Counted from the first letter of the stretch, positions 8,213 to 26,377 are shown. The stretch: DNA of 26,377 bases from Candidatus Heimdallarchaeota archaeon (GCA_030614005.1 JAUWKS010000045.1:1-26377), one strand, 5' to 3'. Numbers and translations are program-made. Notes: generated from the sequence alone by a model not told the origin.

Positions 8213-8499
8213 ATAATAACCCTCAATTTATTTATAAGAATAATAATAACGATTAGTTATTAAACTTTAATGAAAGGACAAAATAGTTTTAACTTTACAG
8301 ATAAACACAATTGTTGTCTTAATCTTTTAAATGTTTTTTAGGAAAATTCTCTACCATATTTAAATGTATAAGTATGAGACTAAATTAAAGAGAAAATAGC
8401 ACAATCCGAAAGGTAATAAAGAAGTTCGGTAGATTTTTTATCAAGAAAAGCTTTTTCAATTATTAGAATAACGTTCTTTCCTAATGCGTGGTGAAAAAA

Positions 8500-9906
8500 A
8501 TGAGCGAAGAATCTTCCTCCCTCAACCAAAAACAACTGGCTAAATTGGAGAAAAAGGCAAAACAATTCGGGTACGAAAATTTGAGCTTCTTCATTGAAGA
8601 TATTGATGTACTACTTCGACCTTCCAATCTCCTTAAAGAAAAGGATATGAAATATTTTGAATTAGAGAATTTAATCTCATTACTTGATAGTAAAAAAATC
8701 AGTTTAGGTATGGCTCCTAGAATGATTTCTATGGTATCAAAATATTCAGAAAGAAATGAAGAATTGGAAGAAGAAACTGCCACTCTTAAACAGGAAAACA
8801 TTACTCTAAAGAGTAAACATCAGACAGCTGCAGCTCAAGCAAAAGAATTACAAAATCAGTTACAGAATCTATCCGCAGCTCCTCAAGCTGATGCAAAAAT
8901 TAGAGAAACAAACATCAAGTTGACTGAAGAAAGTAAATATCTCAAAATAACTAATGAATCGCTTTCAACTGATCTAAAGAAGATTAAAGTGAAATATGAT
9001 GAAAAACTCGAAGAAGCAAATGATTTAGAAGTCGAGAATAGTCAATTAGAAATGCGTATGAAAGATCTTCAAAGAGAACTTAAAGAAGTTGCTCTAGAGT
9101 TTGAAGAAGAAAAGAGAAAAGGGTCAGGTTCAGATAAAACACTCAAGAATATTGAAAAAATTATTGAAGAATTAGATGAGATTTATGGAACAGTAGATGA
9201 TCCTTTCAAGAAGGAATTTCTAGCTTTTCTTGGTGTAGAGCTTAGTGAAATCATTGACAATAGGCATATCACTAAACAAAAAATACTGAATCAAATTGCT
9301 ATTCATGCTCATGAAATTGAGAAGATATTTGAACCTCAAATAGCTTCAATGGCAAGAAGACAATTTGTGAGTGAAGCACCAGTTCAACAAGCTACAAAAT
9401 CACGTGAAACTATTCCAGAACCAGCAAAAAGAAAACCCGTTGAAACTTCAACAAAAGAAACTACTCCCACAACTGAAGAAATAGATCAAGATCCTGACGA
9501 GCGCTCTGTAAAACCAAGTGATTTTCTTAAAGGCAAAGGTGTTCAAAAAGCTAAACCAAAAGATGATGATGGTGAGAAAGAACAACCCGAACTTGAAGAA
9601 GAAGTAAAAACTCCAAAACCAGCATATACAAAGAGAAAATCAAGAAGTAAAAAACCAGTTAAAATTGATCGAACTCCAAGCCCAGAGCTTGTGAAAGTTA
9701 TCGATGTTTTCATTAAATATATTGAGGCGATCAATGATACAAGTTCGTTTAATGACATATGTGATAAATTCATAGAACAAATGTATGAACATGTGGGTTC
9801 TCCCGGTATGACCAAAGTCTATAAAATAAAAAGTGGTGGAGTAAAAAGAAAACAAATGCTTATTGATCTCCTAACTGCTTGGAAGAAAGAATTACCAGAA
9901 ATGTAA
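8500..9906 (+). CDS. Hypothetical long coiled-coil protein with charged linker and small C-terminal helical domain
   Basis: Heptad-rich E/K/L segment from about residue 75 to 225, a P/E/K/T-rich linker, and a ~75-aa C-terminal domain. ATG 8500 follows GGTGA. No NTPase motifs. Confidence 0.75.
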   Translation: MSEESSSLNQKQLAKLEKKAKQFGYENLSFFIEDIDVLLRPSNLLKEKDMKYFELENLISLLDSKKISLGMAPRMISMVSKYSERNEELEEETATLKQENITLKSKHQTAAAQAKELQNQLQNLSAAPQADAKIRETNIKLTEESKYLKITNESLSTDLKKIKVKYDEKLEEANDLEVENSQLEMRMKDLQRELKEVALEFEEEKRKGSGSDKTLKNIEKIIEELDEIYGTVDDPFKKEFLAFLGVELSEIIDNRHITKQKILNQIAIHAHEIEKIFEPQIASMARRQFVSEAPVQQATKSRETIPEPAKRKPVETSTKETTPTTEEIDQDPDERSVKPSDFLKGKGVQKAKPKDDDGEKEQPELEEEVKTPKPAYTKRKSRSKKPVKIDRTPSPELVKVIDVFIKYIEAINDTSSFNDICDKFIEQMYEHVGSPGMTKVYKIKSGGVKRKQMLIDLLTAWKKELPEM

Positions 9907-9978: not shown

Positions 9979-10428
9979 CTAAATATGAATTTCAGCTATC
10001 TGATTAATTGCTATTCCTGCCATGCCACCTTTCTCAAATCGAAGTCTAACCCGCTTGTTTCTAATTTGACCATGGGTTGCAGAAACAATTCCTTTAGCAA
10101 TAGCATCGCTACCTTCAAAGTTAAGAGTGAATTTTCTACCCACTAATGCTTTATGATTAACGTCATCTAAAATCAATGCAATTGCTTGATTGGTGACTTG
10201 TAATCGGTTGCTTCTTCTATAACTCACTATTTTAGCTTTTACCGTTGTTGCTTTTTTGGAAGTTTTTTTAGTTGCAACAGGTTTCTTGACAGCAGATTTC
10301 TTAGTAGTTGAAGTTTTAGCTTTTGAAGCAGTCTTTGGTTTAGTTGATGTTTTCTTAGGAGTAGCTTTTACACTACTTTTTTTGGATGTGGTTTTCTTTG
10401 TAGAAGTTGTTTTCTTTTTTTCTGACAT
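9979..10428 (-). CDS. rpl35ae: 50S ribosomal protein L35Ae (eL33) with Lys/Thr/Ser-rich N-terminal extension
   Basis: Core KIVSYRRS...LVGRK...KGIVSATHG...VRLRFEKG matches the archaeal L35Ae pattern as I recall it. About 62 extra low-complexity residues at the N-terminus. Confidence 0.85.
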   Translation of the reverse strand: MSEKKKTTSTKKTTSKKSSVKATPKKTSTKPKTASKAKTSTTKKSAVKKPVATKKTSKKATTVKAKIVSYRRSNRLQVTNQAIALILDDVNHKALVGRKFTLNFEGSDAIAKGIVSATHGQIRNKRVRLRFEKGGMAGIAINQIAEIHI

Positions 10429-10522: not shown

Positions 10523-11938
10523 CTAGCTATTACTCTCGGCTTTTTTGAATCGTTTTTCAACTTTTAATAGAACACTTTCAAGACTTTGGAGAAAGTTTTC
10601 AATTTCACTCTTTTTGATTGACACTAAACGACCAGATTGGTGAACTAAAGTATTTCTTTTCTTTCTTATTTTATTAAATGATTGTTCTTCTTTTTCACTT
10701 ACCAAAGCTTTGTCTTTAAGAAATTGGAGCATAACTGAAAAATTTGTATGAACTTCAATTGGGGCATCAAATCTATCTAAAATACCTTTGAAAAGCTGTT
10801 CAGTCGATCTAAAGAGAAAAACTAGCGAAGTTGCTCTTTCTTCCTCAGAAATCTCATCCCACATATTCAATCTATTCTTTACGTACTCAATATCTGTTTT
10901 GAGGGAATTAAGTTCATGATCATAACTAAAAACATCTCGAGCAATGTCATAGAAAGGACTATCAAAGAATCGATTTTTGATTATAGCCGTTTGTTCAGCA
11001 GTTACCTCTAATTCATCTAATATTGGTTTATATATTCTCCAAGCTTGTTGTTTAGCAACTTGATTGCGAGCATATACACGCAATGCTTCTGAGAGATGCT
11101 CAGAAAACTCTTGTTCATAGATTCCATCAATTCGTCGCGAATGCTTGCGTAATAATCGGTCTCCTACTAAGCTTTCAGTAGGAAATTGGCTTAGCGCTCT
11201 AATGTAATTATTTCTTTTAATTTGTTCTTCTTCATCAACAAAAATAACAATTGGAAGAGTTTCAAGCATTAATTGTCTTAAACGGTTAAGAGAATAAATC
11301 GCTAGCAAGTCACTTAGAATAGTCAAAGAACCAAAAAGCAAAGCAAAGATTGCTACATTTATACTATTGGTTATTTGATCAATATAAATGAAATCTAAAG
11401 AGATTGGTGTGTAATGAAGAATAATTATTCCAATAAAGTCTACTAAGGATAAAATAGACCAAAGAATGGAAAACAGAAATAACGTTTCAAAACTGCTCAA
11501 TAAATTATTTTTCTTATCACTACGAGACCGACTTATATACGAATCAATATACAAACCTTTGACGTCATTTACCAATTGAGGGATTAACTTACCATTAATT
11601 TCTTCTCTAATCTTCATTTTTTGTTTATCAGCTAAATGATCTTCATCACCTGAAAAAATAAATAGGGAATCTAAGTTTTCTTTTAGGTTTTTCTCATAGT
11701 ATTTTGCTGTTCCACTTACAAAGTAGATTAACATTGGTGATGCCATATATAAAAATAAAGCAGGAGCAATAAGCAAAAATGCCCATAAAATAAGTGTTCT
11801 AAAATCGAACTCTATACCTTTTACTGTTAAATAAATTGCATATACAATAAACTCAAGGATTATAGGTGCATAAGCGCCTAAAAAGAACCGTTGATTAAAG
11901 AGAGCATTTGTTGTTCTACTTTGAAATCTGCTTGAAAT
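10523..11938 (-). CDS. Multi-pass membrane protein with C-terminal HEPN-like (RxxxxH) domain; probable ATT start
   Basis: The frame stays open 57 codons upstream of the track's TTG (11776) and encodes a further hydrophobic helix. About four TM segments. C-terminal KIRKKRNTLVH. SD-like GGGGT lies 9 nt before ATT 11938. Confidence 0.7.
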   Translation of the reverse strand: MSSRFQSRTTNALFNQRFFLGAYAPIILEFIVYAIYLTVKGIEFDFRTLILWAFLLIAPALFLYMASPMLIYFVSGTAKYYEKNLKENLDSLFIFSGDEDHLADKQKMKIREEINGKLIPQLVNDVKGLYIDSYISRSRSDKKNNLLSSFETLFLFSILWSILSLVDFIGIIILHYTPISLDFIYIDQITNSINVAIFALLFGSLTILSDLLAIYSLNRLRQLMLETLPIVIFVDEEEQIKRNNYIRALSQFPTESLVGDRLLRKHSRRIDGIYEQEFSEHLSEALRVYARNQVAKQQAWRIYKPILDELEVTAEQTAIIKNRFFDSPFYDIARDVFSYDHELNSLKTDIEYVKNRLNMWDEISEEERATSLVFLFRSTEQLFKGILDRFDAPIEVHTNFSVMLQFLKDKALVSEKEEQSFNKIRKKRNTLVHQSGRLVSIKKSEIENFLQSLESVLLKVEKRFKKAESNS

Positions 11939-12057
11939 TGTTTGTCAACCCCATCAATAATATATAATCAATAATAAATAACTGAAAGAGTAATTAATGA
12001 ATCTTCTCTTAATTTAAAATAGAAGTTAATAATGAAGAAATATACGAGGGGAAAAAT

Positions 12058-13443
12058 ATTCGGAAAAAACATCAATATATAAAAAATAGAGGGATTTTAC
12101 TATCAGATTGTTGTGAGGAAAAGATACTCAAAGCAAGAAAAATCGTTTTAGATATTCTTGAGGAAGGAATTGAAGCAGCAAACCCTGAGAAAGTAGTAAG
12201 AGAATTTCTAACTGTCAAAGATGATAAATTGATATTACCTGATTATTCTAAAATAAATCTAAAAGAAAACAAAAGAATCATTGTAATTGGAACTGGAAAA
12301 GCTTCTGCTTTAATGGCTTTAGCTGTAGAAAATCTTTTGGGAAAATACATTACTCAAGGTTTGGTTTGTGTACCAGAAGAAGAAATTGAGAAAAAGTATC
12401 CATTAAAGAAAATAATTCTGCAAACAGCAGGACATCCTTACGTAAATGAAGGAAGCATTGCTGGTGCGAAAAAGATTTTAGCATTAGTTGAAAATTTGAA
12501 TGAAAATGATATTGTTCTCGCTTTGATAAGTGGAGGAGGTTCAGCTCTATCAGAATTACCTCTCGAGACAATAAGTCTAGCAGATTTACAAGAAATGTTT
12601 AACCTCTTGACAAAAGTGGGTGCTACAATTCATGAATTAAACACCATTAGAAAGCATTTGTCAAAAATTAAAGGAGGGAAACTAGCAAAAATAGCTCAAC
12701 CGGCAAAAGTAATTTCACTAATCATCAGTGATGTTATTGGTGATGATTTAGATACTATTGCATCAGGCCCAACGGCTCCAGATAATACAATTTGGCAAGA
12801 CGTAGAAACAATAGTACAAAAATATAATCTAAAAGGAAAAATACCAGCATCAATAGCTCAGATAATTGACAAAGGAATGAAAAATGAAATTGAGGAAACT
12901 CCAAAGAAAACACAACCATTTTTTAAGAAAGTAAAAAATTTCATTATTGCGTCGAATGCAGTTTCATGTATCGCTATGAAAGAAGCAGCACTCGATATTG
13001 ACTTAAATTGTAAAATTCTTTCTACAGAAATAAATGGAGAGGCGAAAGATGTAGGTGCTAAAATAACTACTGCAATTAACAATGCGGAGAAGAATACTTT
13101 GCTTATTGCCAGTGGTGAAACAACAGTAAAAATAACTGGTCAAGGTCATGGGGGAAGAAATCAAGAATTAGCATTAGCTTCAGGAATTCTACTAAAGAAA
13201 TCTGAAACAATAGTAATAGCTTCTATAGGATCTGATGGAAAAGATGGTCCAACTGAAGCAGCAGGAGCACTCATGGATAAATGCATTATCAAAACAGCAA
13301 AACGAGATAATTTAGATTTACAAGAATACCTTACTAACAATGATTCATATAATTTCTACAAAAAGGTTAATGGTTTAATAATTACTGGATTCACAGGAAC
13401 AAATGTTATGGATCTAATTCTCGCGTTGAAAATGAAAGAATAA
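12058..13443 (+). CDS. gck: Glycerate 2-kinase, MOFRL family; probable ATT start
   Basis: IGTGKA, SGGGSAL, GGKLA, DVIGDDLDTIASGPT, GETTV, GGRNQELAL, DGKDGPT, TGFTGTNVMD. The family-typical N-terminus (IKNR...KARKIVLDILEEGIEAANPEKVV) lies upstream of the track's TTG 12229. The start position is uncertain. Confidence 0.9.
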   Translation: MRKKHQYIKNRGILLSDCCEEKILKARKIVLDILEEGIEAANPEKVVREFLTVKDDKLILPDYSKINLKENKRIIVIGTGKASALMALAVENLLGKYITQGLVCVPEEEIEKKYPLKKIILQTAGHPYVNEGSIAGAKKILALVENLNENDIVLALISGGGSALSELPLETISLADLQEMFNLLTKVGATIHELNTIRKHLSKIKGGKLAKIAQPAKVISLIISDVIGDDLDTIASGPTAPDNTIWQDVETIVQKYNLKGKIPASIAQIIDKGMKNEIEETPKKTQPFFKKVKNFIIASNAVSCIAMKEAALDIDLNCKILSTEINGEAKDVGAKITTAINNAEKNTLLIASGETTVKITGQGHGGRNQELALASGILLKKSETIVIASIGSDGKDGPTEAAGALMDKCIIKTAKRDNLDLQEYLTNNDSYNFYKKVNGLIITGFTGTNVMDLILALKMKE

Positions 13444-13607: not shown

Positions 13608-14789
13608 GTGGCTAATTCATCATTGTATCAATATGCATCAAAATATGCACAGAAAGCATATGACCAAGATCAAGCTGGAAATTATAAATCAGCTTTTCAA
13701 AATTATCTGAAAGCTGCAGAAATTCTACAGCAACTTATAAGCTTCACGAGTAATCCCCAGCTAAAAAATATGTACTATATAAAATCAAAAGAATATCTTG
13801 CTCGAGCAAAGGAATTGAAAGATCAAGGTATGCAACCAGCGGATACGAGTAGAAAGAGAAGGAGTTCAAGGAAGAGTAGCGGAGGGGATTCATCTGATTC
13901 AGATGAAGAAAAAGATGAATTAGAAGAGGCAATTGATGAAATCATTATTGTGGAAAAACCAAATGTCAAGATGAGCAATGTCGCAGGTTTGGAAGAGGCA
14001 AAAAGAGCTCTAAGAGAAGCGATTATTTTACCTATGAAAAGACCCGATTTATTTACTGGCGCAAGGAATCCTTGGAGAGGCATTCTATTATTTGGTCCCC
14101 CAGGAACTGGAAAAACATTACTTGCTAGAGCTGTAGCTACTGAAGTTGATGCAACGTTTTTCAATGTCAGTGCTTCAAGCATTATTTCGAAATGGTTGGG
14201 TGAATCAGAAAAGCTAGTTACACAGTTATTTGAATCTGCACAAGAAAAACAACCATCTCTAATATTCATTGACGAAATAGATAGTATAGCCTCCACGAGA
14301 GGCGGAGAACATGATGCTATGCGAAGAGTGAAAACAACGCTCATGACTCAAATGAGTGGTGTGACTTCCAAGAAAGAAGACCGAGTAGTTGTTATTGGTG
14401 CAACAAATCTTCCTTGGGAAATTGACCCAGCCTTTAGAAGCAGATTTGAAAAGAGAATTTACATTAATTTACCAGATTTACCTGCAAGATCGAAAATCTT
14501 TGAGATTCATTCCAAAGGAATAGAAATTGAGGACACAGTAGATTTCCAACTTATTGGTGAAATGAGTGATGGATACTCTGGAAGAGATATTCAATTAATT
14601 TGTCGTGAAGCAGTAATGATGCCTGTTAGAGAACTCGATATTTCAGGTGCCCTAGATGACCCAGATATAAAAGCTCGAGCTGTAACAGTGCAGGATTACA
14701 TGTTAGCATTTGAGAAGATTAAACCAAGTGTTGCCCCTGAAGAATTACTTAGATATAGAGATTGGGCTGAAGAATTCGGAAGTATTTGA
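13608..14789 (+). CDS. vps4: Vps4-like AAA+ ATPase with N-terminal MIT domain (ESCRT-III disassembly)
   Basis: MIT three-helix region (AQKAYDQDQAGNYKSAFQNYLKAAE), Walker A GPPGTGKT, pore loop SKWLGESEKL, Walker B IFIDEID, GATNLPWEID, RFEKRIYI, C-terminal helix WAEEFGS. No eukaryotic beta-domain insert. Confidence 0.93.
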   Translation: MANSSLYQYASKYAQKAYDQDQAGNYKSAFQNYLKAAEILQQLISFTSNPQLKNMYYIKSKEYLARAKELKDQGMQPADTSRKRRSSRKSSGGDSSDSDEEKDELEEAIDEIIIVEKPNVKMSNVAGLEEAKRALREAIILPMKRPDLFTGARNPWRGILLFGPPGTGKTLLARAVATEVDATFFNVSASSIISKWLGESEKLVTQLFESAQEKQPSLIFIDEIDSIASTRGGEHDAMRRVKTTLMTQMSGVTSKKEDRVVVIGATNLPWEIDPAFRSRFEKRIYINLPDLPARSKIFEIHSKGIEIEDTVDFQLIGEMSDGYSGRDIQLICREAVMMPVRELDISGALDDPDIKARAVTVQDYMLAFEKIKPSVAPEELLRYRDWAEEFGSI

Positions 14790-15112
14790 AACAATCATTC
14801 GAACAAATTCCATTATCTTCATCTAGCAATTAGCTAAAGATTTTTCTTTGGAAATTGTTAGACACCATTCTAATGATTTCTAAATTTTTCAACAGGAGCG
14901 CAGATAAATTGCCTATTATTAAACATTAAAATATGTCTTAAAAATAATATACTTAATATTCAATCAAAATGTAAAAAAATATTATTACAATTAAAACAAA
15001 ATGAATAAAGTATTAACACAGTGTAAATAAACACAGTATGAGGAAAATAGTTTAAAATGAATTGTTTACACTATTATTCTGTTATTTAGAGAAAATGCAG
15101 CGGGAATGCGTT

Positions 15113-15937
15113 ATGTCAGTAAAAGAGAAGAAAAGTAAAGAAAAAACTAAGTCCAAAGGCAACAAGACAAAGCAAGTTGCAGTGAAGGAGAAAGTGAAAA
15201 AAGAAAAAACTGTAGAAAAGAAACCCGCTGAGAAACCTAAAACTAAAATTAAACCACCAAAAGAAGCAACAATTACTATTTCTTTAATTGAGAACCCAGT
15301 AACAACAGAGGAAAAGATATTCAATGCAATGCTTCGAATTGAACAATTAATTGAATCTGATGTGGCAATATCTCGAGAAGATCTTTTTGATCTTGGACAA
15401 GACATCGAAAGACAGCTAGAAGAGATACTACCGGAATGGATTAATAAACCCTGGATGTATGTCACACCAGAGCATCAAAAGCAACTTGATTCCTGGTGTT
15501 CTGATTGGTCTAACTTTATTATGGAATATGCTAGAATAAATATCAAACACATTATCCATGTCGAAGAAGAAAGCTCAAACTATCCTTTCAATAATAAAAC
15601 AGCAAAGAAAAGATTAGATAGAGAACAACTTCAAGAAATAGGCGATTACATTGTTGCTCAAGAGATGGGAATCTGGTGGGATAAGAAGAAAATACGATTA
15701 CGTTTGTATTGGCGAACCCTTGATGAATGGGGAGATATCATCTATGAGTGGAGTATTAAAACAGGGAGAGCTGCAAGTGCAGATAGAGTAATGACATTAT
15801 TTGACATTCAAGATGCAGGACAACCTTGGAGTTCTATACCTCAACAAGATCTCAAAAGGATTTTCAAACTCATGCATGAAAAAGGATATATTGAATGGGC
15901 AGATAAAAAGAAAAAGTCCATTGCTTTCTTATTCTAA
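15113..15937 (+). CDS. vps25: ESCRT-II subunit Vps25/EAP20 homologue with N-terminal basic extension
   Basis: KQLDSWCSDW, PFNNKTAKKRL, WRTLDEWGDIIYEW and TLFDI match the tandem winged-helix pattern of Vps25 (QLAAW, LFNN, WRRPEEWGKLIYQW, TLYEL as recalled for human). ATG 15113 is preferred over TTG 15062. Confidence 0.85.
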   Translation: MSVKEKKSKEKTKSKGNKTKQVAVKEKVKKEKTVEKKPAEKPKTKIKPPKEATITISLIENPVTTEEKIFNAMLRIEQLIESDVAISREDLFDLGQDIERQLEEILPEWINKPWMYVTPEHQKQLDSWCSDWSNFIMEYARINIKHIIHVEEESSNYPFNNKTAKKRLDREQLQEIGDYIVAQEMGIWWDKKKIRLRLYWRTLDEWGDIIYEWSIKTGRAASADRVMTLFDIQDAGQPWSSIPQQDLKRIFKLMHEKGYIEWADKKKKSIAFLF

Positions 15938-22034: not shown

Positions 22035-23144
22035 GTGACTCAAGAACTCAAACAAGCAGGAGAAATAGCAAAAAGGTTAGCAAAAGAGGTCTCTGGTATT
22101 GATTTAATACTTGTCTATGGTGGCATTGCTCAAGGAAGATTTAGTAAATATTCTGACTATGATATGATTGCAATAAGCGATAAGAAGTGGGTTGTTTGGG
22201 AATTCGTTCAGGATAATCAACCAATTTGTCTTTGGCCAATGACTTGGAAGAAAGCTGAAGAGGTAGCTATGGGCAAAACAAGTTATTGGAGTGTTGCAGC
22301 AGCAGCAATCTTCGCATCCAAAGTTGTTTGGTGTAAATCAGATAAAATTTTGAAGAAATTTGAGGATTTGAAAAGATTTCTTTCTGAGGGAGGACCTCGA
22401 ACACTCAAAAAAGCTATAACAGATTATGACAAATTATACGGAAAATTATGGCGAATGCAGAAAGCTATCGAGGAAAAAAATGATTTAGACATCTCGTTTC
22501 TTAAGAATGACATTGTAAATGAACTTGCTCATATTCTTTCAGCTTTAAACAATCACTATTATCTGAATAATTTTGGCAAACAATTACTCGAGATTGAAAT
22601 ATTTGAACTTTTACCAAATGATTTTGTTGAAAATTATAAAAAATTTCTGATAGCAAAACCAGAAGATGCTTTAGTTATTGGAAGCACAATTGTTGATGAA
22701 GTAAAAATTCTCATCAGAAATTGGTTAAACGAACAAGAATTGGAACCTAACGAAAATGCTGCAGGAATTGCCAAAGAATGGCCAGGAATAATTGAATGGT
22801 TAAATAAAACTCTTTCAGCAAATGAAGAAGAAGATTTAATCGGAGGATTAATGGCTGCTAATGAAAACGCTGAATTTTACCTTTGGGCATTTCTATTATT
22901 ACAAAACAAAAAATGGCTTAGAAATGGTTTCTACTCTGTAGAAGAAGAGATGTTAAAATTATCAAAGAATATCTCAAACAATATTAGCACATTATTACAA
23001 TCACAAAATCTTGCTGAAATTAAGGATGCAGCCCAACAATTAACTGCAACATTGGAAGAAGAGTTGAGACTTAGAGGAGCAACACTCCCTATTGCAGAGT
23101 CATTAGATGAAGCTATTCAATTTATACAACAGAAGGAACTGTAA
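22035..23144 (+). CDS. Pol-beta superfamily nucleotidyltransferase, kanamycin-nucleotidyltransferase (KNTase)-like
   Basis: LVYGGIAQG...YSDYDM signature followed by two helical-bundle repeats. GTG start after GGTGA. Confidence 0.8.
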   Translation: MTQELKQAGEIAKRLAKEVSGIDLILVYGGIAQGRFSKYSDYDMIAISDKKWVVWEFVQDNQPICLWPMTWKKAEEVAMGKTSYWSVAAAAIFASKVVWCKSDKILKKFEDLKRFLSEGGPRTLKKAITDYDKLYGKLWRMQKAIEEKNDLDISFLKNDIVNELAHILSALNNHYYLNNFGKQLLEIEIFELLPNDFVENYKKFLIAKPEDALVIGSTIVDEVKILIRNWLNEQELEPNENAAGIAKEWPGIIEWLNKTLSANEEEDLIGGLMAANENAEFYLWAFLLLQNKKWLRNGFYSVEEEMLKLSKNISNNISTLLQSQNLAEIKDAAQQLTATLEEELRLRGATLPIAESLDEAIQFIQQKEL

Positions 23145-25865: not shown

Positions 25866-26377
25866 CTAGTCACCATTTGTAGGATTACTATTTTGAATTT
25901 CATCTACAATGTCTTGCTCAGTTGAAGTCCATTTCTTTATGCCAATAATAATCAGATAGATCACAATAGCATAAATCATTACCGTAATGGTAATAGCAAA
26001 GGCAAGTATTAAGGATACTAGTGTACCAACACCAGGGCAGATAATTGTTCCACAAAGAATTAATGCGCCTATCCAAGTTAGATAGCCCATTATAATCCAA
26101 CCAAGTAAACTATCAAAAGGACCTGCAAAGTAACCTTTGGGTTCGAAATAATTACTGCTCCAGAACCAATTGAATGTTTGTGGACGAAGAGCATTATGGG
26201 CAAAATAATCAATATTAGCCCTAATATAGAAAAATTGGATGGCAATATCTCGATCACCGATGTCTGCTTCTAACCAAGGTTGTTCCATACTAGTTCGCCA
26301 GGTCGCTTCTGCACTACTTTCCCACCAGCAATCATAAGTTGCTTGTACACCTAAGCCAGCTACTAAGCTTTGGGCAA
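25866..26377 (-). CDS. C-terminal part of a membrane protein, 5'-truncated by the window edge
   Basis: The frame is open from ATG 26288 to the window end (AQSLVAGLGVQATYDCWWESSAEATWRTS-M). Long hydrophobic C-terminal region with 2-3 TM helices. Confidence 0.7.
   Translation of the reverse strand, partial: AQSLVAGLGVQATYDCWWESSAEATWRTSMEQPWLEADIGDRDIAIQFFYIRANIDYFAHNALRPQTFNWFWSSNYFEPKGYFAGPFDSLLGWIIMGYLTWIGALILCGTIICPGVGTLVSLILAFAITITVMIYAIVIYLIIIGIKKWTSTEQDIVDEIQNSNPTNGD

Follow-up and report, generated by a model that had tools for sequence, protein, structure and literature searches.

A membrane protein of Heimdallarchaeia with a C-terminal HEPN domain, predicted to be a membrane-tethered endoribonuclease

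The TM-HEPN gene and its start codon

The window, i.e. the whole stretch of DNA that was analysed, spans 26,377 nucleotides of a Candidatus Heimdallarchaeota archaeon genome (GCA_030614005.1 JAUWKS010000045.1:1-26377). It carries genes for LeuRS, TrmO, an S8 peptidase, an ESCRT-II protein, Vps4, a DUF4147/MOFRL glycerate kinase, an M20 peptidase, a HAD hydrolase and an AsnC-type regulator, and among these lies a gene on the minus strand for a membrane protein that ends in a HEPN domain, in the following referred to as TM-HEPN (Table 1). The reading frame is not a chance ORF: it has 39 close homologues, and a HMMER scan of 1.84 billion representative proteins returned 55 representatives of the family, about 25 of them full length, with a single copy of the gene in the host genome.

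Table 1. Features of TM-HEPN and of other genes in the window. Residues are numbered along the 473-aa open frame (window 10526-11944, minus strand); subtracting 2 gives the numbering from the ATT start.
Feature	Position	Strand	Residues	Basis and remarks
TM-HEPN coding sequence	10523..11938	minus		471 aa from ATT 11938-11936; stop 10523-10525
Probable non-canonical start	11936..11952	minus		GGGGT (11952-11948), TGA, CAA, ACA, ATT (11938-11936)
TM helix 1	11819..11887	minus	~20-42	hydropathy and AF2 helix
TM helix 2	11714..11803	minus	~48-77	hydropathy and AF2 helix 48-77
Helical insert TM2-TM3, predicted cytoplasmic	11504..11713	minus	~78-147	70 aa, charged; AF2 helices 79-142; invariant Y132
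TM helix 3	11411..11503	minus	~148-178	hydropathy; invariant E153 at the predicted cytoplasmic end
Short loop TM3-TM4, predicted outside	11366..11410	minus	~179-193	conserved LDF..(I/L)DQI.N motif
TM helix 4	11279..11365	minus	~194-222	hydropathy and AF2 model
Helical middle region, predicted cytoplasmic	10931..11278	minus	~223-338	~115 aa; AF2 helices 238-338, pLDDT 47-80; invariant Y305
HEPN domain	10526..10930	minus	339-473	135 aa; structure searches and AF2
Second conserved HEPN element, R379 and E382	10799..10810	minus	379-382	LYRxxE, helix 2; invariant in 25 members, nearly so in 27 sequences
Catalytic-type motif R427-x2-R430-N431-x3-H435	10640..10666	minus	427-435	invariant in alignments of 22, 25 and 27 sequences
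Coiled-coil protein	8488-9906	plus		472 aa; no family match
L35Ae/eL33-like protein	9979-10428	minus		downstream of TM-HEPN
Glycerate kinase ORF	12229-13443	plus		404 aa from the first TTG
ESCRT-II (Vps25-like) and Vps4 genes	13608-15937			adjoining; Vps4 with MIT, AAA and Vps4_C
ORF	22035-23144	plus		369 aa; no Pfam family at E<=0.001
ORF	25866-26288	minus		140 aa; no Pfam family at E<=0.001

The TM-HEPN frame is open from its stop codon up to a TGA at 11945-11947. In a table-11 ORF list the gene begins at the first TTG (11776), which gives a protein of 417 aa only. The 54 codons ahead of this TTG align with the conserved N-terminus of ATG-started homologues of 465-475 aa and encode ..TNALFNQRFFLG.YAPIILEF.., which comprises the conserved N-terminus and the first membrane helix. 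Between the upstream stop and this conserved N-terminus, no in-frame ATG, GTG or TTG is present in the host genome or in two congeners. The string GGGGT-TGA-CAA-ACA-ATT is kept in three species of the genus, with the codons after ATT differing non-synonymously, and other congeners carry ATG, GTG or TTG at the position of the ATT. No indel was seen in the start region in contigs from three independent metagenome studies. Since there is no canonical in-frame start, since the string is kept and since the independent contigs are free of an indel, the ATT at 11938 is most likely the initiator of TM-HEPN. Two out-of-frame ATG codons were rejected as real starts: the frame opened by ATG 11908, which would require a frameshift, ends after 9 codons, and ATG 11954 is not conserved in the congener L008, the independent contigs again lacking an indel. 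The public runs that contain the locus are DNA contigs from marine sediment and cold-seep metagenomes, and no RNA runs are listed among them.

Membrane module and C-terminal HEPN domain

A hydropathy scan of TM-HEPN revealed four hydrophobic stretches, the limits of which are those of the four TM helices in Table 1, and AF2 models the protein over its whole length as helical throughout, with a mean pLDDT of 71. The distribution of charged residues across 25 full-length members points to the orientation of the protein in the membrane. Lysine and arginine together amount to 1.7 residues per member in the N-terminal tail, to 12.4 in the insert between TM2 and TM3 and to 2.4 in the first 20 residues past TM4, as compared to 0.5 in the TM1-TM2 loop and 0.56 in the TM3-TM4 loop, both of which are acidic. 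With 2.6 aspartate and glutamate residues per member against 0.56 lysine and arginine residues, the TM3-TM4 loop is likely to be located outside. Thus, the positive-inside rule, applied to the 25 members as a rule and not through a dedicated predictor, predicts that both termini and the HEPN domain reside in the cytoplasm. Within the TM3-TM4 loop, I191 does not vary among the 25 members and D189 hardly does, and RDxI, the counterpart of the loop motif, is invariant in an alignment of the paralogues described below. Fold searches with the membrane and middle part against AFDB clusters, the ESM Atlas and the wide VIA set, in which the query was the 473-aa model and not this part folded alone, identified no known fold; they returned one family member, A0A523XIT0 (30% identity), and generic helical hairpins. 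Similarly, a language-model look-up of residues 1-338 gave no usable match.

The C-terminal part is far better defined by structure comparison. Folded alone with the family alignment, the domain reached an AF2 pLDDT of 90.3 and a pTM of 0.84. In VIA-align it superimposed on the HEPN structures of HepT, YutE and HI0074 over 113-133 residues with an rmsd of 2.4-3.1 A and Z scores of 13.8-11.9; the top 18 rows were all HEPN proteins, and unrelated bundles appeared from a Z of about 9.5 downwards. For helical bundles a Z of about 13 is borderline, being close to the limit that common helix packing can reach, and the fold assignment therefore relies on the motif and on how consistent the match list is. 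A Foldseek-independent search of 48,161 representative chains likewise placed HEPN first, over residues 340-473. Foldseek against the PDB gave HEPN-type proteins in 30 of the 31 top rows (HepT toxins, YutE, HI0074, AF_0298, TM0613 and TTHA proteins) with probabilities of 0.9-1.0, TM scores of 0.5-0.7 and modest E values of 0.02-0.6, and against the Swiss-Prot models the same list of HepT and YutE proteins with probabilities of about 1.0. Matches to the C-terminal part among the AlphaFold DB clusters are mostly named DUF4145, HEPN or DUF86.

Sequence profiles point in the same direction at lower scores. Four Pfam HEPN families matched the TM-HEPN query on one and the same stretch with 12.8-21.5 bits, the cut-offs being 23-28. 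At E<0.05, seven of 25 members matched the HepT-like family (PF01934) and six DUF4145; member P0047 lies above the gathering cut-off of DUF4145 (29.4 versus 23.1 bits), and member P0054 reached 21.9 bits against HepT-like, for which the cut-off is 23.5. Profile searches of PDB sequences, run with the domain alignment and with an alignment of 27 sequences, yielded non-significant rows only, with YutE at E 0.059 and HepT at E ~0.3. Taking structure models and match lists together, the last 135 aa of TM-HEPN are a HEPN helical bundle.

The 25 full-length members, which share 22-66% identity with the query, agree in no more than 12 invariant columns, and four of these are R427, R430, N431 and H435. 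The complete R-x2-RN-x3-H pattern is invariant in an alignment of 22 sequences, in the 25 members, i.e. down to 22% identity, and in 27 sequences including two paralogues. Its RNTLVH part, which corresponds to residues 430-435, resides at the end of helix 79-97 in the model of the separate domain. A functional catalytic site would be expected to show such invariance. D351 and W362 in HEPN helix 1 are also invariant columns in the 25 members, and for R379 and E382 in helix 2 we infer a role in the active site.

These results bear out what the first-pass annotation, made from the DNA sequence, had observed, and support its interpretation in part: that the RNase would be membrane-gated and would couple an envelope signal to cleavage is purely conjectural. 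The protein-coding gene proposed at 10523-11938 is borne out, and the ATT start at 11938 is favoured as well; the four or so N-terminal TM helices followed by a helical middle region are recovered by hydropathy and AF2. The C-terminal helical HEPN domain, at that time estimated at about 100 aa, is found again at a length of 135 aa with matches to HepT and YutE in both VIA-align and Foldseek, and the HEPN fold emerged from all three structure searches. The RNTLVH sequence is located exactly at 10640-10657, its arginine and histidine are invariant throughout the family, and the loop charges of the 25 members place the domain in the cytoplasm and not outside the cell. The three checks by which that annotation could have been refuted, on the fold, on the two motif residues and on the orientation, thus all came out in its favour.

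Distribution, genomic context and paralogues

The members of the family carry the source labels Heimdallarchaeota, Hodarchaeales, Kariarchaeaceae or 'Asgard group', with two rows among the close homologues labelled otherwise (Zixibacteria and Thorarchaeota). TM-HEPN was detected in 62 of the 82 species-representative genomes of the host's class, covering 14 of its 18 genera, and in about 60 of these 62 genomes it is full-length or cut by a contig end and nearly always present in one copy. It was not found in the remaining ~20 of the 82 class genomes, including two single-contig genomes that are 92-93% complete, and TM-HEPN is therefore not indispensable. In 223 other sampled Asgard genomes no whole TM-HEPN was found, and eight weak matches with E values of 4e-6 or worse concerned the HEPN part. 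The family is thus almost confined to Heimdallarchaeia.

The gene is part of a block of the order LeuRS-TrmO-S8 peptidase-ESCRT-II-Vps4-glycerate kinase-[TM-HEPN]-eL33-like-coiled coil-TPR, which is kept in two relatives (57% and 67% identity). In these two relatives TM-HEPN is 57.6 and 66.9% identical to the query, LeuRS 64 and 70%, TrmO 57.5 and 57.3% and the glycerate kinase 52 and 54%, and for the M20 peptidase there is no hit in the first and 64% identity in the second. Thus, the divergence of TM-HEPN is similar to that of its neighbours, and its conservation matches that of LeuRS or TrmO. In three distant members the gene is surrounded by other metabolic, translation and housekeeping genes, with a different downstream gene in each. 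Neither MNT nor cas, restriction or other defence genes are present in the window or in the five homologue neighbourhoods, i.e. those of the two relatives and the three distant members, and the query, three members and three paralogues gave no match at E<=0.01 to the models of PADLOC-DB 2.0 (2023 library). The gene immediately downstream of TM-HEPN has the same direction at a distance of 94 nt. Its product aligns end to end with Pyrococcus L35Ae/eL33 at E 8e-4, below the cut-offs of Pfam and NCBIfam, and no better L35Ae candidate above the cut-off occurs elsewhere in the genome. This protein carries a lysine-rich N-terminal extension of about 60 aa. The setting among core genes rather than in a defence island, as first described from the sequence, is accordingly supported by synteny, the nature of the neighbours, the rate of divergence and the PADLOC search. 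Of the further statement that the gene lies directly upstream of a ribosomal protein gene, the L35Ae/eL33-like neighbour holds, and its assignment to a ribosomal protein family stays below the curated cut-offs.

Seven of the representatives recovered in the HMMER scan match the TM-HEPN profile at positions 8-290 only and hence share the membrane module. In P0078 the module is joined to a HEPN domain and a helix-hairpin-helix C-terminus, in P0081 to a trypsin-like peptidase, in P0079 and P0089 to extra TM helices, and in P0083 to a HEPN domain with its own RN-x3-H. The N-terminal profile of the paralogues matches the N-terminal part of the main family with E values of 1e-29 to 1e-12 and finds nothing outside the host's class. 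The four-helix module itself appears to be new, and its recurrence with other C-terminal domains in rare paralogues suggests that it might serve as a reusable membrane sensor or anchor. P0083 adjoins a NACHT-LRR gene among small unknown ORFs (locus L018), a context that may be mobile or of the conflict type, and P0081 also lies among small ORFs, which hints that the wider superfamily of the four-helix module includes conflict-type systems. Paralogues of the module are located at L018:7001-8410, L019:1578-3398 and G063:C182:4234-5085 (HEPN, trypsin-like peptidase, 621-aa open frame).

Candidate function and comparison with known systems

Most of what is known of HEPN RNases concerns toxins and defence effectors, and membrane-anchored forms have been predicted for bacteria and have hardly been studied. 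Heimdallarchaeia are, in most phylogenies, the archaeal class nearest to eukaryotes. TM-HEPN behaves as a cellular gene: it is single-copy, syntenic, conserved like tRNA-related enzymes and confined to this class. Its slow evolution, the single copy and the near-restriction to the Heimdall group point to a function that is probably cellular and not that of a toxin or of virus defence. We consider it rather probable that TM-HEPN is a membrane-tethered HEPN endoribonuclease with a role in the cell, the activity being predicted. Such an enzyme would cleave RNA on the cytoplasmic side of the cell membrane in a metal-independent fashion and would, like other HEPN RNases, most likely act as a dimer, in which two R..H motifs would form one active site; keeping the two HEPN domains in place or letting them go would be the task of the membrane and linker module. 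On this view TM-HEPN would be passed on vertically within Heimdallarchaeia as a gene of the cell itself, serving housekeeping or the regulation of stress responses, and would be neither a mobile toxin nor a defence gene. The putative RNase activity, dimerisation, regulation by the membrane module and RNA target of TM-HEPN are transferred from established knowledge on HEPN RNases (PMC3710099). Against this reading stand the Pfam matches of the query, which are below the gathering cut-offs, and the non-significant profile search of PDB sequences. If TM-HEPN is active, membrane RNA cleavage would be a regular cellular function in Heimdallarchaeia, and the protein would offer a defined object for testing with a clear pair of catalytic residues for mutation.

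A membrane-bound HEPN protein as such is not without precedent. In 2013, Anantharaman et al. described three bacterial groups in which a HEPN domain is joined to one or two TM helices, and by analogy with Ire1 and C6orf70 a stimulus-dependent degradation of RNA at the inner membrane was proposed for them (PMC3710099). TM-HEPN shares with these proteins the N-terminal anchor, the C-terminal cytoplasmic HEPN domain with RN-x3-H and the same proposed logic (PMC3710099). In contrast to the one or two TM helices of the bacterial groups, it possesses four, together with the 70-aa insert and the 115-aa linker, and is archaeal, limited to one class and syntenic; the 'WP' of the bacterial single-TM DUF4145 group is absent from the TM-HEPN consensus, which has four TM helices instead. 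Membrane-bound HEPN proteins are thus a kind already predicted in bacteria, and what is new here is the four-TM archaeal form, so that TM-HEPN represents a variant and not the first of its kind. The first-pass annotation had called the protein undescribed, and this applies to the family, for which neither Pfam nor NCBIfam nor PADLOC provides a model and whose members are named 'hypothetical protein', but not to the kind, given the bacterial membrane HEPN proteins of 2013 (PMC3710099).

A comparable design is found in eukaryotes, where the KEN domain of Ire1 and RNase L and C6orf70 (DUF4209) represent membrane-anchored, cytosol-facing HEPN-type RNases with a cellular role (PMC3710099). Unlike these, TM-HEPN has neither a kinase nor a lumenal or outside sensor domain and is anchored by four N-terminal helices. 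No sequence match to KEN, DUF4209 or a kinase was obtained in searches with the query and the members, and the HEPN domain is preceded by a helical linker. The likeness is one of design only, with no homology shown beyond the HEPN superfamily. It might be speculated, albeit with a low expectation, that Heimdallarchaeia possess a dedicated membrane enzyme for RNA decay or processing, which would cut mRNAs or the RNA of membrane-engaged ribosomes under membrane or secretory stress and would be a functional counterpart of the Ire1 and C6orf70 RNases of the ER membrane, built on a module not seen elsewhere.

Alternatively, TM-HEPN might be a fixed abortive-infection or stress toxin, in which the membrane module senses envelope damage, caused by a virus or otherwise, and frees the HEPN RNase, so that translation stops and dormancy or death ensues. 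Most prokaryotic HEPN families serve conflict systems, and a role of this type has been proposed for many prokaryotic HEPN proteins (PMC3710099). The membrane module with swapped C-terminal domains in rare paralogues is a typical pattern of conflict systems, to which the surroundings of P0083 (NACHT-LRR gene, small unknown ORFs) and P0081 (small ORFs) can be added, as can the patchy absence of TM-HEPN within the class. Defence genes are, however, usually mobile and fast-evolving, whereas the main family is single-copy, syntenic at 57-67% protein identity and conserved like LeuRS and TrmO, and the five neighbourhoods contain neither defence nor antitoxin genes, with no match to a PADLOC model. 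We therefore regard a fixed toxin as rather unlikely.

It is distinctly improbable that the HEPN domain is non-catalytic and binds RNA or a nucleotide, or oligomerises, to control a membrane function in the manner of the Csx28 pore. Non-catalytic HEPN domains do exist, Csx28 and proteins of the kanamycin nucleotidyltransferase type being examples (10.1101/2021.11.02.466367; PMC3710099), and in TM-HEPN the working part could lie in the four TM helices together with the acidic outside loop and the invariant motif of this loop. The full R-x2-RN-x3-H is, however, invariant at about 22% identity and kept in two paralogues, which is the pattern of catalytic HEPN families. Csx28, which likewise combines a TM segment with a HEPN-like domain, spans the membrane with a single TM helix, has a divergent HEPN motif, forms a membrane pore and is encoded next to cas13b in type VI-B2 systems (10.1101/2021.11.02.466367; 10.1101/092577). 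TM-HEPN, in contrast to this single-TM protein tied to cas13b, combines four TM helices with an invariant motif of the canonical form, and cas genes are absent both from the window and from the loci of the relatives.

That TM-HEPN is a toxin paired with a neighbouring antitoxin, such as the lysine-rich eL33-like protein encoded downstream, is hardly credible, since, although the two genes run in the same direction with 94 nt between them and the pairing is kept in two relatives, the antitoxin of HepT-type toxins is an MNT nucleotidyltransferase, none of which is encoded nearby, the eL33-like protein aligns end to end with archaeal L35Ae, and distant members each have a different downstream gene. 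The best structural matches to the whole HEPN domain of TM-HEPN are HepT toxins (DUF86, PF01934) and B. subtilis YutE (PDB 8xdj, 8yuf, 7ae6, 5yep, 6m6w, 1ylm), which carry R-x4-H in the corresponding helix, with R430 set on the arginine of YutE in the HMMER alignment. HepT is a soluble protein of about 130 aa paired with an MNT antitoxin gene, whereas in TM-HEPN the domain forms the end of a 471-aa membrane protein with no MNT gene nearby. Furthermore, the tyrosine of the HepT RX4HXY motif is missing in TM-HEPN, which reads H-Q-S-G, the position being Ser or Gly in the family. An assignment of TM-HEPN to the HepT-MntA type VII toxins was rejected accordingly, as there is no MNT gene, the domain does not stand alone and no tyrosine follows the histidine.

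Some further observations concern the neighbouring genes. The vps4 and ESCRT-II genes are 1.7-4.5 kb away from TM-HEPN, and no ESCRT-III gene is present in the window. A functional link between TM-HEPN and ESCRT was considered and is not inferred, as the glycerate kinase gene intervenes and distant members have no ESCRT neighbours; in the accessible part of a survey of ESCRT proteins, HEPN appears only in the abbreviation list of a figure legend (PMC11188069). The coiled-coil protein occupies the same position in the two relatives with 54-58% identity. The Pfam match of the glycerate kinase ORF starts at profile position 34 and the orthologues of the two relatives comprise 459 and 466 aa; its true start is probably non-canonical and located upstream of 12229 (12010-12229).
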